A stretch of 64,000 nt of DNA from Thermoplasmatota archaeon (GTDB taxonomy: Archaea; Thermoplasmatota; Penumbrarchaeia; Penumbrarchaeales; EX4484-36): contig JAOZQA010000001.1 in NCBI GenBank assembly GCA_029932465.1, positions 2,953 to 66,952 on the forward strand, given 5' to 3'. This document shows, in pieces, positions 5,929 to 35,797 of this stretch; position 1 is the stretch's first letter; every line of letters begins with the position of its first letter. The position numbers were made by a program, and so were the translations under genes. The notes below the pieces were generated by a model, which worked only from the letters and a program-made list of their open reading frames with translations, ran no database searches and was not told the origin of the DNA.

Positions 5929-8811
5929 TCATTCCACGTATACGGCTGGCTTGAGGGGTAAAGCCAGGTGTGCCCTTCCCCGGGGGTCGTATTTTGAGGG
6001 GTCATCCTCCTCGTAGACTGAGACCTCGGCCCCCAGCTCTCTGGAGAGAAAGGGAATGCTCCTCCTCAGGAAATCCTTCTCATCCCTGAAGCTGAGGTAC
6101 CTCTGCCGGTCCTCCTCCTTCATCCTCATGACATCCTTGGCCAATCTGCTTATAATCTGGGGGACCACCTTCTTTTTGTCCTTTAATTCCTCTTTCTCCA
6201 AGAACTCCTTTATTACCCTCCCGGGGTCCACCCGCCCCTTCTCCTCCCTCATCCGCATCAGCCTCTCAAGCGCCTCCCACTTCCACCCGGGGGCTGTGTA
6301 GAGGACGATCCGCTCCCCCTCCCTCCCCGTGGCTCTCCTTATGTGGGAGATGTCCTCGAGGAGTCCTTTTAGGTACTCCTCCCTGGCCAGCACTCCCTGG
6401 TCGTAGGCCTCCACCTCACCGGTCTGCGAGAGGGAGACCAGCCCCTCTCCCCCAGCCATCTCCCACAGCTCCTCAGCAAGGTGGGGGGTGAAGGGCATCA
6501 TCATCTTCGCCCAGGTGCGCACGGCCTCCTTGAAGGCCTCCCCGCCCCCGCCACCCCTTCTCAGATACCATCTTAAATCCTGATACGTCTGGTAATAGAC
6601 GGTCCCGGCGGCCTCCCTTAAGGCGTAGTTCTCCATGGCATCCAGGTACTCCGAGAACCTCTTAGCTAAAGCGGCCCTCAGGTAGTCGTCCATCTCCCCC
6701 CCCTCCCCCCCGCCAGATATAATCTCTCTCACCAGGTTGAGTATTTTAAGGAGCCTGCTCTGGTAGTCGCTTACCACCTCCTCCCTCCACTCCACATCCA
6801 TCTCCGGGGAGCCCACGTGGCAGTAGTAGAGCCTCATGGAGTCAACGCCGTAGTGGGCGATGGCCTCTGGTATGGGCTCTGCCCCACCCTTGCTCTTGGC
6901 GATCTTCTCACCGCCCTTCTGGGTCACCCACCAGTGGACGAAGATTCCCCGGGGCCATGCCCATTTAGGCATTATGGCAACGTGGTTCATGAGAAAGACG
7001 GGGAAGTGTACCGTTTTGTGCTCCTTCCCCCCCAGGTTTATATCTAGCGGATACCAGTAGAGGAAATCTCTTCTTATTTTCTCAATAACCCCCCTCCTCT
7101 CCTCCGGAAAATCACTTATCTCCCCTCTTCCAAGATAGACGTAGTCAAAGAACCTCTCATCCATCCACTCCACCTTAAGTTCACCGGAGTTCACATACTT
7201 TGAAACGATGTAGTAGGCGGGGTAGAGGGTTGAATCCGATATCGGCTCAATGATCCATCCCTTTGCGAAGGGAAACTCCGTTCCAAGCCAGGAGCCCTGG
7301 CGTATGCACGCCCTGTCAGAGAACCATTCCAGCACCCCGGGGAGCTCTCTCTTGTACTCCTCTGGATATATCATCATCCTCTCGGTGTGCTCCACTGACC
7401 TCTCGGTGAGCTCCTCGTCCGAATACCTTATGAACCACTGGTTCTCAATCCTCTTGATCACAACCCTCTCCCCGCAGCGACATATAACCTCCTTTGAAAA
7501 GTCGTAGAAGGGCCTGATGAGCCCGATGTTTTCCAGGTCCACTTTCAGGGTGTCTTTGATCTCGGAGACCTTAAGCCCTGCATAGTCCATACAGAGGTCG
7601 TTCAGCACTCCAGAGTGGAACTCCTCCCTGTAGATCTCCCGGGTGGCCTCCTCCAGCTTCTCCACCTCGAACTGGTCCTTCACCCCCATGCTCTTTACAA
7701 GATGACCTGCTGGATCCTCCATGGGGTACTTGCGGCTCTTTATGATGGTTATGGGCATAATCCCCTCCACCACGCTCTTAAGTCCCCATGGGTCCTCCCC
7801 CTCTCTCAGCTCCCCCTTAAGGTCCTCAAGGGCTATCCAGTCGTAGGGGGCGTGGGCGGGAACGGACATGACCACCCCCGTGGCCACCTTCGGGTCCACG
7901 AAGGGTCCAGGAAGTATAGGCACCTCCCTGTTGGTATAGGGCACCCGGCAGCTCTTCCCTATGAGCTCGGAGCCCTTTATCTTTCCCACTTCTTCAACAT
8001 CACCCATCTGATAGCTGAGTTTGACGTAGCCCTCCCGGGAGAGAAGCCACCCTCTTCCATCCACCTCCGCCACCACGTACTCCACATCCGGGTTCAGCCA
8101 CATGTTGGTCACGCCGAAGAGGGTCTCAGGCCGCAGCGTTGCGGCGGGGAGGATGAGCTGCTGCGGCCCCTCGAAGAGGAGGAGTGAGTACTCCAGGACA
8201 TCGGCGTCTCCCCCCTCGGAGACGTCGGTCTGGGAGGGGTCCACCGCAACCGGCCCGCAGTTTGGGCAGTAGGGGGCGTAGTGGGGCTTTTTTGTGAGAA
8301 GCCCCTTCTGGTTCAGCTTCAGGAACTGCCAGGTTATGAAGCGCTTGTACCCCGGGGATACTGTGGACATCGCCCGGGAGAGGTCTATTGTGAAGCCGAA
8401 CCTCTTCCAGTAGTCGTTTATGTACACCTTTGAGAAGAAATCAATGAGGTAGCTAACGTCCTTGAGCTTCTCAATCTCCTCCTCCGGGCAGCCGTTTCTT
8501 TTCAGATATTCTATTGTGGAGGGGTCCCCTCTCTGAATCCTCTTCGCCAGCGATATGGCTGGCAGGCCAGAGGCGTGAAATCCCACGGGAAAGAGGACGC
8601 TGTAGCCCCTCTGCCTCTTGTAGCGACAGATCACGTCAGCGTATGTGAAGCCCCTCATGTGGCCCACGTGGAGGTAGCCAGAAATTCCAGGGTAGGCGAA
8701 GATGAGAAAGAACTTCTCCCGCGTCTCATCTCTCTCCGCCTCCCACCTCACCTTCTCCTCCCATATCCTCTGCCATTTCCTTTCGATGTCAACGAGCACG
8801 TTCTCGGCCAT
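5929..8811 (-). CDS. leuS: Leucine--tRNA ligase, archaeal type
   Basis: YPGISGYLHVGH (HIGH), CP1 editing TLRPET and GVVMSVPAHAPYD, GKEHKTVH, KIAKS (KMSKS variant), C-terminal KPAVYVE. Confidence 0.97.
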   Translation of the reverse strand: MAENVLVDIERKWQRIWEEKVRWEAERDETREKFFLIFAYPGISGYLHVGHMRGFTYADVICRYKRQRGYSVLFPVGFHASGLPAISLAKRIQRGDPSTIEYLKRNGCPEEEIEKLKDVSYLIDFFSKVYINDYWKRFGFTIDLSRAMSTVSPGYKRFITWQFLKLNQKGLLTKKPHYAPYCPNCGPVAVDPSQTDVSEGGDADVLEYSLLLFEGPQQLILPAATLRPETLFGVTNMWLNPDVEYVVAEVDGRGWLLSREGYVKLSYQMGDVEEVGKIKGSELIGKSCRVPYTNREVPILPGPFVDPKVATGVVMSVPAHAPYDWIALEDLKGELREGEDPWGLKSVVEGIMPITIIKSRKYPMEDPAGHLVKSMGVKDQFEVEKLEEATREIYREEFHSGVLNDLCMDYAGLKVSEIKDTLKVDLENIGLIRPFYDFSKEVICRCGERVVIKRIENQWFIRYSDEELTERSVEHTERMMIYPEEYKRELPGVLEWFSDRACIRQGSWLGTEFPFAKGWIIEPISDSTLYPAYYIVSKYVNSGELKVEWMDERFFDYVYLGRGEISDFPEERRGVIEKIRRDFLYWYPLDINLGGKEHKTVHFPVFLMNHVAIMPKWAWPRGIFVHWWVTQKGGEKIAKSKGGAEPIPEAIAHYGVDSMRLYYCHVGSPEMDVEWREEVVSDYQSRLLKILNLVREIISGGGEGGEMDDYLRAALAKRFSEYLDAMENYALREAAGTVYYQTYQDLRWYLRRGGGGGEAFKEAVRTWAKMMMPFTPHLAEELWEMAGGEGLVSLSQTGEVEAYDQGVLAREEYLKGLLEDISHIRRATGREGERIVLYTAPGWKWEALERLMRMREEKGRVDPGRVIKEFLEKEELKDKKKVVPQIISRLAKDVMRMKEEDRQRYLSFRDEKDFLRRSIPFLSRELGAEVSVYEEDDPSKYDPRGRAHLALPLKPAVYVE

Positions 8812-22320: not shown

Positions 22321-22405
22321 CAGGATAGATAACCGAAGAGGATAAGAAAAAACTTTCCTTGACATTTTATAGCGATAAAAATCACCCTCTGCCCAGGAAA
22401 CGCAC

Positions 22406-22462
22406 AAGACCTACGGTTCAAATCCCGGTCGTTGTAGAGAGTTGCTGGGACAATAATGTAAG
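22406..22462 (-). repeat. tRNA-Glu 3' trailer element containing antisense T-arm
   Basis: 22415-22428 ggttcaaatcccgg is the exact reverse complement of 22471-22484 in the tRNA; flanks resemble the tRNA-Val trailer. Confidence 0.75.
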
Positions 22463-22535
22463 TGCTCCCGCCGGGATTTGAACCCGGGTCGCAGGCTCGA
22501 AAGGCCCGCATGATTGGCCGCTACACTACGGGAGC
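22463..22535 (-). tRNA. tRNA-Glu(TTC), CCA not encoded
   Basis: Reverse complement GCTCCCG...CGGGC-CTTTCGA-GCCTG...CCGGG-TTCAAAT-CCCGG-CGGGAGC-A. Confidence 0.96.
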
Positions 22536-34246: not shown

Positions 34247-34642
34247 ATGATACCTGGAATGGGAAGGGGACTGAACCCCCGGCAGCTTAAAATGCTCATG
34301 AAAAGGCTTGGAATAGAGGTGGAAGAGCTTGAGGGGGTAAAGCGGGTTATCATCGTGAAGGAGGATTGCGAGCTCTACGTTGAGGATCCCTCTGTGACAA
34401 TCATGCGAACCCCCGAAGGGGAGACCATACAGGTTGCCGGAAAATTAAAAGAGATGCCTTTAGGGAGCAGAGAGGATGCTGAAAAGGAGGGCAAGAGAGA
34501 AGGCGGTGTTGAGGTCCCGGAGGAGGACATCCAGCTTGTTATGGATCAGACCGGGGTGAGCAGGGAGAGAGCTATTGAGGCCCTGAAGGCAACCTCCGGG
34601 AGCCCGGCGGAGGCCATCTTGAAGATCATGGAAGAGGGGTAA
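34247..34642 (+). CDS. nac: Nascent polypeptide-associated complex protein (archaeal NAC)
   Basis: NPRQLKMLMKRLGI, V..VII, C-terminal UBA-like EDIQLVMDQTGVSRE.A..AL....G.PAEAI. Confidence 0.92.
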   Translation: MIPGMGRGLNPRQLKMLMKRLGIEVEELEGVKRVIIVKEDCELYVEDPSVTIMRTPEGETIQVAGKLKEMPLGSREDAEKEGKREGGVEVPEEDIQLVMDQTGVSRERAIEALKATSGSPAEAILKIMEEG

Positions 34643-34682
34643 AGAAAGCTTTATTAAAAACAAAAATATAAGCCACCTCCGT

Positions 34683-34756
34683 GGGCCCGTGGTCTAGCTG
34701 GTTATGACGTCGCCCTCACACGGCGGAGGTCGCCGGTTCGAACCCGGCCGGGCCCA
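34683..34756 (+). tRNA. tRNA-Val(CAC), CCA not encoded
   Basis: GGGCCCG...TCGCC-CTCACAC-GGCGG-AGGTC-GCCGG-TTCGAAC-CCGGC-CGGGCCC-A followed by CCT. Confidence 0.96.
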
Positions 34757-34980
34757 CCTTTAATAATTTTGTGGTCAGCGGATATTAACGTGGCCGGGTT
34801 CGAACCGAAGGTCTTCCGCACTTGCAGAGAAAAGGAATTAACGAAGGAAGTGCGGAGGCAAGGTGAAAACGGTCTAAAGAGGATGAAATGAGGAGTTTTC
34901 ACCGTGTCGAACCCGGCCGGGCCCACCTTTAATAATTTTGTGGTCAGCGGATATTAACGTGGCCGGGTTCGAACCGAAGG
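34738..34980 (+). repeat. Perfect 74-bp direct repeat (tRNA-Val 3' end + trailer) flanking a 95-bp insert
   Basis: 34738-34811 and 34907-34980 read identically base by base; the repeat starts inside the T-loop. Confidence 0.92.
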
Positions 34981-35071
34981 GCCCGGGTGTTTTCTGAGAG
35001 GTCTATCTACGGACAAAAAGTTACGGGTCAAAGGTTGCTTTTTTATCTGTCCTCTTATTCTTGGTATAAAT

Positions 35072-35797
35072 ATGCAGAGAAAACTTGGAATTATAGGGGG
35101 TACGAACCTTTACAGGCTGGGGGGTGAGGGGGAACTTTTGGAGGTGGCGGAAACTACCCCTTATGGAATCCCATCCTCCCCCGTACAGACCCTTGATGTA
35201 AAGGGATATGAGGTGCCAGTGATTATAAGGCATGGGCTGGAACACAACATTCCCCCCCACAGAGTGAACCACCCAGCTAACCTTCACACTCTGAAGGATG
35301 CTGGTGTAACACATGTGCTGGGGATATCTTCCACAGGGAGCCTCCGGACTGAAATAAGGCCTCCTCGGGTCCTCATACCTGAGGATTTCTTCTCCCCGTT
35401 TGTTGTCCCCACCATATACAACGATACGATAGTCCATGTAACACCGGAACTTGACGAGCAGTTAAGGGAATATCTGAGGGAAGCTGCTGAGAGGACTGGT
35501 GTTGATGTGTACTACGGTGGGGTTTACGTCCAGAGCACTGGGCCGAGGCTTGAGAGCAAGGCGGAGATAAGGGTGATGAAAGAGTGGGGCCACGTGGTCG
35601 GGATGTCCATGGCATCCGAGGCCACGGTGGCCGTTGAGATGGGACTTAAATATGCATCTCTCTGCTCAGTTGACAATTACGCCCATGGGGTGGAGGGGGA
35701 GAAGCCGGACTACCAGAGCATTCTTGAGGCCGCAACCCGTAACTGGAGGTCCATAGAGGCCATTCTCGAGGCCCTTCTTGAGATATTCTACAGCTGA
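35072..35797 (+). CDS. Methylthioadenosine/methylthioinosine phosphorylase family (PNP/MTAP)
   Basis: GIIGGT, TPYG.PS, RHG..H.IPPH, STGSL, GPRLESKAE, VGMS, VDNYA. Confidence 0.9.
   Translation: MQRKLGIIGGTNLYRLGGEGELLEVAETTPYGIPSSPVQTLDVKGYEVPVIIRHGLEHNIPPHRVNHPANLHTLKDAGVTHVLGISSTGSLRTEIRPPRVLIPEDFFSPFVVPTIYNDTIVHVTPELDEQLREYLREAAERTGVDVYYGGVYVQSTGPRLESKAEIRVMKEWGHVVGMSMASEATVAVEMGLKYASLCSVDNYAHGVEGEKPDYQSILEAATRNWRSIEAILEALLEIFYS

Follow-up and report, generated by a model that had tools for sequence, protein, structure and literature searches.

The window analyzed here is a stretch of 64,000 nucleotides from a Thermoplasmatota archaeon (contig JAOZQA010000001.1), in which a tRNA-Val(CAC) gene is followed by a perfect direct repeat of 74 bp that starts inside the tRNA gene itself. 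On balance, we favor the interpretation that this locus is an archaeal array of tRNA-trailer units resembling RtT, the tandem units found behind tRNA-Tyr in E. coli, and that the array evolves by homology-driven recombination and not through a dedicated integrase. In our notation, A is the tail of the tRNA gene from the T-loop to the discriminator base, B is an AT-rich spacer, C is an antisense copy of the T-arm, and D is the core; the order at the locus is tRNA(A)-B-C-D-A-B-C, after which comes a second core that is truncated. We are inclined to see in the 74-bp repeat a linker, A-B-C, that joins consecutive units of a tRNA-trailer array with a period of ~169 bp. With a similarly modest degree of confidence, we consider that C-D-A constitutes a folded core of ~139 nt, arranged head-to-tail behind tRNA genes on the tRNA strand. 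Small, folded, non-coding units of this kind follow about half of the tRNA genes in this genome, and the family, which is uncatalogued, occurs throughout this Thermoplasmatota order. By analogy with E. coli, the unit is probably an RNA gene riding on the tRNA. Our literature searches returned no description of such units in archaea.

The direct repeat behind tRNA-Val(CAC)

Positions 34738-34811 and 34907-34980 are identical at 74 of 74 nucleotides, with a period of 169 and an intervening segment of 95 bp (34812-34906), as a first-pass annotation of the letters alone had reported. Its further statements were also borne out, namely that the identity begins in the T-loop of the tRNA (at position 55, counted by hand from the ARAGORN and Rfam placements) and that it continues 55 nt beyond the discriminator base (34756), to stop after GAAGG. 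At 96% identity, the similarity extends upstream to cover 82 nt from 34730/34899. The trailer additionally carries a perfect 16-nt antisense copy of the T-arm (34734-34749 versus 34792-34807), which forms an inverted repeat. A perfect repeat of 74 nt within 64 kb cannot be attributed to chance.

A family of units in the genome and across the order

The source genome (G000) comprises 1.92 Mb in 88 contigs and is 94.6% complete. Based on a profile search of the whole assembly, we identified at least 19 units behind at least 11 tRNA genes. Sequences 70-73% identical to the 243-bp stretch that includes both repeat copies and the insert are found behind four further tRNAs of this genome, and the 95-bp insert is homologous to the cores found behind at least 10 other tRNAs. 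Full units are located behind the tRNA-Leu genes Leu-TAG (2), Leu-CAG, Leu-TAA (2) and a further Leu (2), as well as behind tRNA-Lys, Ile (2), Gly-CCC, Gly-GCC, Ser-GCT (at least 4), Met and Val-CAC, while stumps of units remain behind Glu-TTC, in the window, and Val-GAC. A further nine tRNAs are situated no more than 35 nt from a contig end; therefore, the arrays break the assembly. The D cores fall into three classes, which are common to unrelated tRNAs. All 10 CCA-encoding tRNA genes of this genome are devoid of units, and all unit-bearing genes are devoid of CCA, a rule that fails in the order's other taxonomic family, where the arrays mix several unit types, each of them ended by a tail copy.

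These results bear on two suggestions of the first-pass annotation. Its proposal of a 169-bp non-autonomous unit holds as far as discreteness is concerned, since exactly one unit is gained or lost at tRNA-Val(TAC) (see below), but not as regards singularity, given the at least 19 members and their order-wide occurrence. The possibility it had considered, that the insert is unique and unconserved sequence, is contradicted by the searches, which found cores behind at least 10 other tRNAs and units in metagenome contigs.

The covariance model R1, built from a seed of 16 units, matched 25 of the 26 genomes and all eight genera of the order, the source genome and its sister species (G001) being the genomes with the most matches. 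These matches are located ~45 nt behind tRNA genes, on the same strand. None was obtained at E<=1e-6 in 11 genomes from other orders of the class. Among the 201 genomes of the phylum that were sampled (~180 elsewhere in the phylum), one match fell outside the order, and upon inspection, it proved to be a true unit behind tRNA-Gly-GCC. Scanning metagenome contigs with the family pattern yielded 23 contigs, and scanning them with a B-C word specific to the Val locus yielded no match, a negative that may reflect the exclusion of near relatives from the contigs searched.

A second family of units, which we call type E, is one of the unit types mixed in the arrays of the order's other taxonomic family and is also present in this genus, in the Gly and Glu arrays (G000 C54:3300-3710 and the 3' end of C43; G001 L037 and L042; metagenome locus L066). 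Its first hairpin is built from the last bases of the tail plus CA (GCACCAAATT...AATTTGGTGC) and is followed by a second hairpin and then by a third, whose loop, GTCGTCAATGA, is the exact reverse complement of the lead of the type 1 unit, TCATTGACGAC; the tail is joined at T-stem position 62. Behind tRNA-Met (G000 C82:5488-5573, L003), the unit is followed by a different insert of ~65 bp, CTCTAATCATATTCCGCAGAG...GAGTG, and then by a partial tail copy, AAAATCCGGCCGGGCCCACC. This insert is a third kind of tail-bounded segment.

Conserved fold of the unit

The RNAalifold analysis of the 16 aligned seed units returned a three-way junction in which 14 of the 32 pairs show changes on both sides. Its closing helix, P1, is formed by C and the first 11 nt of the next A; the two hairpins, HP1 and HP2, measure 11-13 bp and 8-10 bp, respectively, and the acceptor 3' strand is left free. 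We tested R1 on 35 independent units from JGI metagenome contigs. In these units, 96.9% of the cells were paired, compared with 85.0% after shuffling, and none of 500 shuffles reached the observed value; double changes were present in 16 pairs, and slid controls attained a maximum of 57%. These compensatory changes support the three-way junction of C-D-A. The G-U/U-G combinations exceed the A-C/C-A combinations by 20 to 3 in the metagenome units and by 6 to 2 in the seed, a wobble excess that points to the tRNA-sense strand as the folding strand. For the Val unit, the computed energy is -58.8 kcal/mol (z -5.6) on the plus strand and -49.7 kcal/mol on the minus strand, a difference of 9 kcal/mol. 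Position 57 of the T-loop covaries between parts C and A in 16 of 16 seed units, with a few exceptions among the metagenome units.

Scanning positions 34300-35400 of the window against Rfam at E<=5 returned the tRNA plus noise (a plastid untranslated region, a microRNA and a riboswitch) and no ribozyme, C/D-box RNA or RtT. By eye, a C/D-box reading could be proposed from GGATGAA and a downstream CTGA; it was rejected, as these motifs are not conserved among the units. Similarly, TTRACG/CGTCAA was dropped as a genome-wide protein-binding site, as outside the arrays it occurs in coding sequence only. The tRNA promoters of this genome present a clear A-rich tract followed by TTTATATA. Spacer B begins with YTYATTRTTG immediately after the GC-rich tail and is only 13 nt long in one orthologue; given these two features, an independent promoter in spacer B is unsupported, and we prefer read-through. 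The parts of the array are listed in Table 1.

Table 1. Coordinates of the parts of the tRNA-Val(CAC) array and of the related stump in the window.
Feature	Positions	Strand	Basis and remarks
tRNA-Val(CAC)	34683..34758	+	ARAGORN; Rfam RF00005, 63.8 bits; discriminator at 34756, then CC; A76 not encoded
Repeat copy 1 (A-B-C)	34738..34811	+	74-nt identity to copy 2; inverted repeat with the T-arm
A1	34738-34756	+	tRNA tail, T-loop position 55 to discriminator, 19 nt
B1	34757-34792	+	AT-rich spacer of ~36 nt with T runs; 3' end is the conserved TTAACGTG
C1	34793-34811	+	Antisense T-arm copy plus GAAGG
Core D, class iii (the 95-bp insert)	34812..34906	+	Computed fold; family alignment, covariation
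HP1 of core D	34813-34823 / 34848-34858	+	Loop bears the conserved TTAACGA
HP2 of core D	34862-34870 / 34895-34903	+	Fold, family alignment
Structured unit as modelled	34787..34926	+	R1 match, 111.3 bits, E 1.8e-26; lead AACGTG, P1 5' strand (C1), HP1, HP2, P1 3' strand and free acceptor tail (A2)
Repeat copy 2	34907..34980	+	A2 34907-34925, B2 34926-34961, C2 34962-34980; identical to copy 1; unitigs
Truncated, degenerate older core start (class ii-like)	34981..35008	+	Partial nhmmer match at C65:37905-37960, profile positions 2-56; comparison with G001 L009
Family stump behind tRNA-Glu(TTC) (22462-22535)	22394..22434	-	nhmmer; end of B, C and first bases of a class ii core

Conservation and history of the units

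Orthologous units of the source genome and its sister species are 98% (Ser), 91% (Leu-TAG) and 89% (Leu-TAA) identical, and the changes are concentrated in the HP2 loop, whereas the genes adjacent to the Val array, nac and MTAP, are 74% and 68% identical at the nucleotide level, respectively; therefore, the units are not decaying scars. Judging from these sequence comparisons, the orthologous units persist under purifying selection. Spacer B diverges much faster.

The comparison of the nac-tRNA-Val-MTAP locus in relatives, which the first-pass annotation had recommended, proved informative. The sister species presents nac, tRNA-Val(CAC), one class ii unit, a tail copy and then MTAP (L009), and no class iii unit. 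The source genome presents a class iii core between two identical A-B-C copies, followed by a degenerate class ii-like core start. This remnant at 34981-35008, which extends the earlier description of the locus beyond the second repeat copy, is a truncated older unit, orthologous to the single class ii unit of the sister species. The arrangement in the two genomes indicates that a unit was added on the tRNA-proximal side and that the old unit was truncated. Accepting this polarity, which was also found at Ser-GCT, the ancestral Val locus would have carried one class ii unit, and the source lineage would have gained the class iii core next to the tRNA, with truncation of the old unit.

Gain, loss and exchange of units

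At tRNA-Val(TAC), the sister species and a metagenome contig (L068) differ by an indel of 167 nt that corresponds to exactly one unit, is bounded in the T-loop and is flanked on both sides by sequences that are ~97% identical. This presence/absence pattern would equally follow from deletion between direct repeats. Over the 32 nt that can be compared, the filled allele has the same spacer B as the one behind tRNA-Val(GAC) of the sister species, and these two tRNA genes are paralogues with the same 3' half. At tRNA-Met, two units are found in a metagenome contig (L062), compared with one in the source genome. At tRNA-Leu(TAG), the source genome carries an exact tandem duplicate of 169 bp, while its relatives carry one unit plus an 11-nt partial tail; the duplicate is the signature of an unequal crossover between the tRNA and the partial tail.

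Identical or similar A-B-C segments surround differing D cores at Val, Met (L062), Leu-TAA and Ser, the segments being identical at the first three of these. More generally, A-B-C is specific to the locus, whereas the D classes are common to different tRNAs, and the link to the tRNA 3' half is tighter for B than for D (Mantel r of 0.40 and 0.20, respectively). The Ile and Met arrays are chimeric, their distal end consisting of an Ala-type tail and an Ala-type flank, and a Glu array carries type E units with Gly tails. We also observed that the flank TCCCTTTTGGGTTCAAAACCCCCC is located behind tRNA-Val(TAC) in two genomes and behind a tRNA-Pro(TGG) array in a third (L059 versus L068 and G001 L048); thus, tRNA loci whose tails are similar appear to exchange flanks.

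Searches for recombination enzymes and mobile elements

The absence of an integrase from the window, as stated in the first-pass annotation, was confirmed. The source genome has two matches to PF00589, one to a XerA-like recombinase (C75) and one to a fragment of 176 aa (C20), and neither is on the contig of the window; the sister species has a single match, in a short open frame of 232 aa. The SSV-type integrase (PF16795) gave no match over the cut-off in the 26 genomes of the order, both of these included. Cas1 (PF01867) and reverse transcriptase (PF00078) were absent from both genomes; across the 26 genomes of the order, they are present in five and six, respectively. Searching the genome for island boundaries, we found no copy of a tRNA tail more than 1 kb from its own tRNA. 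Among viral contigs, two D-core patterns gave one chance match, with neither a model match nor a tRNA, and none survived checking. From the lack of Cas1, reverse transcriptase and SSV-type integrase in the two genomes, of distant tail copies and of viral D-core matches, we infer that homology-driven recombination is favored. The integrase-class mechanism implied by the first-pass annotation is unsupported in a genome that contains only one XerA-like tyrosine recombinase, one integrase fragment beside an unrelated tRNA-Ser, and no tail copy more than 1 kb from its tRNA.

The 176-aa fragment is an integrase C-terminal part (C20:23351-23821) located on the opposite strand, ~180 nt behind tRNA-Ser(TGA), a CCA-encoding gene that bears no unit. 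The fragment is probably what is left of a classical integrated element.

Proposed model

Our proposed model has a structural and an evolutionary part. C would pair with the T-loop/T-stem part of the downstream tail copy A, and this helix would enclose the two hairpins while leaving the acceptor 3' strand and the discriminator base free. The units would be transcribed by read-through from the tRNA promoter and would be terminated or processed at each tail copy as a tRNA is, giving rise to a structured small RNA with a tRNA-like 3' end. In the DNA, whole units may be duplicated or deleted when tail copies cross over unequally, and new tRNAs may receive units by gene conversion from paralogous loci whose 3' halves are similar. 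Additionally, D cores may be swapped by conversion tracts whose ends fall in the conserved T-loop segments, sense and antisense, with the locus-specific A-B-C left intact.

Comparison with known systems

The closest parallel is RtT, located at tyrT-tyrV of E. coli (gene rttR, RF00391), where tandem units lie behind tRNA-Tyr on the tRNA strand with a period of 178 bp, compared with 169 bp here. In both systems, each unit ends in a 19-nt tRNA tail copy from the T-loop/T-stem region, a multi-branched fold is closed by pairing between the T-stem part of this tail copy and an antisense piece upstream of it, the acceptor 3' strand is single-stranded, and the last unit is partial. The E. coli sequence shows the 19-nt tail copy, a spacer, a 10-nt antisense piece, GGGGAAGGAT, a GC-rich core and the 178-bp period, and the RF00391 consensus has a closing helix formed by this antisense piece and the tail, GgGaaGGAU / AUCCuuCcC, inner hairpins and a free ccaCCACCA tail. 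Nevertheless, RF00391 gave no match in positions 34300-35400 of the window (E<=5) or in the whole genome (E<=1), with a gathering score of 45 bits and an E. coli control that scored 133-137 bits; thus, the archaeal unit is an analogue and not a member of RtT. Moreover, the archaeal units lie behind at least 20 tRNA species instead of one, their cores fall into several classes, their arrays also contain a second family of units, and their tail is devoid of CCA in this genus.

Attachment sites of the T-loop class, as used by SSV- and pTN3-type integrases (PMC7253208, PMC5495485), share with the Val locus a direct repeat that runs from the T-loop beyond the tRNA 3' end, an occupied/empty polymorphism bounded in the T-loop, tandem accumulation and rearrangement between loci through tRNA-derived repeats. 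In contrast to such elements, the units have no integrase in cis, no SSV-type integrase in the order and no cargo; their core is conserved, structured and, to judge from sequence, under purifying selection, and their spacer and antisense arm are locus-specific. Integron attC arrays resemble the present ones in having short units beside a fixed site, a structure that is kept more than the sequence, a strand-specific fold and an apparent proximal addition. Unlike integrons, the arrays show no IntI, no R''/R' core sites and no open reading frames in the units, and they are anchored on tRNA genes; the unit junctions read GG|TCRAAT, not GTTRRRY. Casposons duplicate 14-15 bp of their target. The segment duplicated here measures 19-74 bp, Cas1 is absent from the source genome and its sister species, and terminal inverted repeats of the casposon kind are lacking. 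The likeness to the casposons of Aciduliprofundum boonei (PMC5137440, PMC6614799) lies in the host phylum, the tRNA 3' end as a target and the duplication of this target.

Alternative explanations

The alternative that survives best, which we hold to be fairly unlikely, is that the units are cargo-less, non-autonomous site-specific cassettes whose T-loop is recognized by a recombinase and whose fold serves as a single-stranded DNA site, as in attC, or as an att core. In a further step that we regard with the same reserve, the units would excise as circles and re-insert at the T-loop, so that new cassettes would become tRNA-proximal. Such a process would account for a direct repeat that begins at T-loop position 54/55 in every unit, for the precise presence or absence of one unit between strains, for newer units proximal to older ones at Val and Ser, for distal copies decayed into stumps and for arrays with several unit families, each with its own junction position. 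C is, moreover, an inverted, near-perfect T-arm-like core, and inverted T-loop sites consequently flank each D core.

The candidate enzyme would be the only complete tyrosine recombinase of the source genome, the XerA-like protein of 220 aa (C75:83021-83683, minus strand; L081 1522-2184), which is unusual. Its best NCBIfam match, XerA_Arch, is below the cut-off, and its score against TIGR02249 is 117 bits, compared with a cut-off of 265. Relative to its counterparts in sister genera, it is devoid of the N-terminal domain of ~85 aa, and it carries an insertion of 30 aa, PRRKVKRTILTYDDEGNIIKKEVTWVTLER, between patch III and box II. Integron integrases carry an extra domain between patch III and box II. 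Nevertheless, no dedicated integrase was found, the genus having only this protein and the fragment beside an unoccupied tRNA-Ser, and other genera have an ordinary XerA and still carry units. A foreign circle would bring a foreign B and C together with an acceptor strand that breaks the tRNA, whereas B and C are locus-specific and identical within arrays. No unit was found in the viral contigs, no island is bounded by tail copies, GTTRRRY/RYYYAAC core sites are absent, and the persistence of orthologous units across species, apparently under purifying selection, also argues against cassettes.

Rather improbable, in our view, is a self-propagating RNA or single-stranded DNA element that needs no protein, whose antisense arm would guide it to the T-arm and would be rewritten at each target. 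In most units, C agrees with the local T-arm at positions that differ among tRNAs, with covariation at position 57 in the entire seed, the D classes are common to unrelated tRNAs, and the genomes richest in units lack a dedicated enzyme. However, neither of these two genomes encodes a reverse transcriptase, and no ribozyme was matched. In the Gly/Arg(GCG) group, C reads AAGGG where CCGGG is expected, which means that rewriting does not follow a rule, and the matching of C to the T-arm is explicable by spread among tRNAs with common T-arms plus gene conversion.

An inert scar, in which attL and attR would be all that is left of a formerly large integrated element after loss of its cargo, as the first-pass annotation had considered, is rejected as very improbable: like an att site, the repeat does span the 3' part of the tRNA starting from the T-loop, but the insert is one of at least 19 related units in the genome, folds with compensatory changes, belongs to a family that is conserved well above the neighboring genes and has a size that is constant everywhere, which is unexpected from random deletion end points.

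The tandem order at the Val locus was examined in assembled Logan unitigs from six metagenomes; the locus is present in 20 public metagenomes and was found in no RNA run. In four runs, a unitig of 155 nt carries the insert between 30 nt of repeat sequence on its left, taken from the end of the repeat, and 30 nt on its right, taken from the start of the repeat, with 0 differences. Two further runs contain a unitig of 199 nt that links the insert to the entire second copy at a depth of 0.8-0.9x that of the flanks, and one of them shows a copy-specific T>C at 34938. The depth of the 74-nt repeat unitig relative to that of the insert unitig is 1.7-2.0 in four runs. As no single read spans the whole structure, we infer the tandem order from the unitig graph, these depth ratios and the unambiguous sister arrays with diverged repeats. 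The search for strain variants proposed in the first-pass annotation accordingly recovered the insert with repeat sequence on both sides in six metagenomes, with no sign of a one-copy variant in the assembled unitigs of the runs examined. That the assembler wrongly doubled one repeat copy, which is conceivable for a 74-bp perfect repeat longer than the k-mer size and for a unitig graph that alone cannot separate repeat-insert-repeat from a loop, has a negligible probability given the repeat on either side of the insert in six independent metagenomes, the 199-nt unitig with its copy-specific base and near-flank depth, the depth ratios, and the comparable arrays with diverged repeats that assemble unambiguously in independent JGI contigs.

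Several points weigh against homology-driven evolution of an RtT-like array, the reading that we prefer. The repeat and insert unitigs reach only ~0.4x the depth of both flanks in four runs (X1-X4), and a mixture of one-copy and two-copy strains does not explain this depth, being incompatible with the repeat-to-insert ratio of 1.7-2.0. A single-stranded DNA recombination site, such as the integron attC, would likewise account for the conserved structure and its strand bias. Transcription, processing and RNA function are deduced from the wobble bias, the covariation and the analogy with E. coli. Homologous recombination alone does not explain the first origin of the antisense C at a naive tRNA, and it does not easily explain the perfect covariation between C and A at T-loop position 57 in the seed. 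A site-specific recombinase would be equally expected to add and remove units precisely, with boundaries in the T-loop. Finally, the class iii core of the Val locus has no close donor in the assembled genome, and the perfect identity of A-B-C therefore needs either ongoing homogenization or an unsampled donor.

Implications of the family

If RNA is made from the units, they would constitute a new, abundant class of archaeal small RNAs that displays a free tRNA acceptor end. According to a 2024 preprint (10.1101/2024.07.17.603846), the mode of action of RtT is still unknown. RtT has been a decades-old puzzle of one E. coli operon, and the archaeal family makes its comparative study possible. 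Tentatively, the archaeal units and RtT may belong to one class of selfish small-RNA genes that spans both domains and requires no dedicated enzyme. Each unit would carry sense and antisense copies of the best-conserved part of its host tRNA, from the T-loop to the 3' end. As RNA, such segments might borrow the promoter, terminator and 3' processing of the tRNA and, as DNA, act as portable homology arms; gene conversion could then copy the unit into any tRNA gene whose 3' half is similar, which would amount to homing without an endonuclease, a possibility to which we give limited credence. For genome analysis, the units explain the breaks at tRNA genes in these metagenome-assembled genomes, direct repeats of tRNA tails are not automatically integration scars, and the units are hot spots of ectopic recombination, visible as chimeric arrays and swapped flanks.

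Other observations

Two further features were recorded. Directly after the decayed second unit of a tRNA-Arg array, ~340-700 nt behind tRNA-Arg(TCG) in metagenome locus L077, there is a CRISPR-like array with at least five copies of the repeat CTTCCACACTATCCAGTGCTTCTGAAAC; it was also found at L074. At 8256-8331 of the window, ARAGORN called a tRNA-Thr(TGT) without the GTTCRAATC T-loop, whose 3' part reads CTGGTTCAGCTTCAGGAACTGCCA and which looks like a false call within other sequence.

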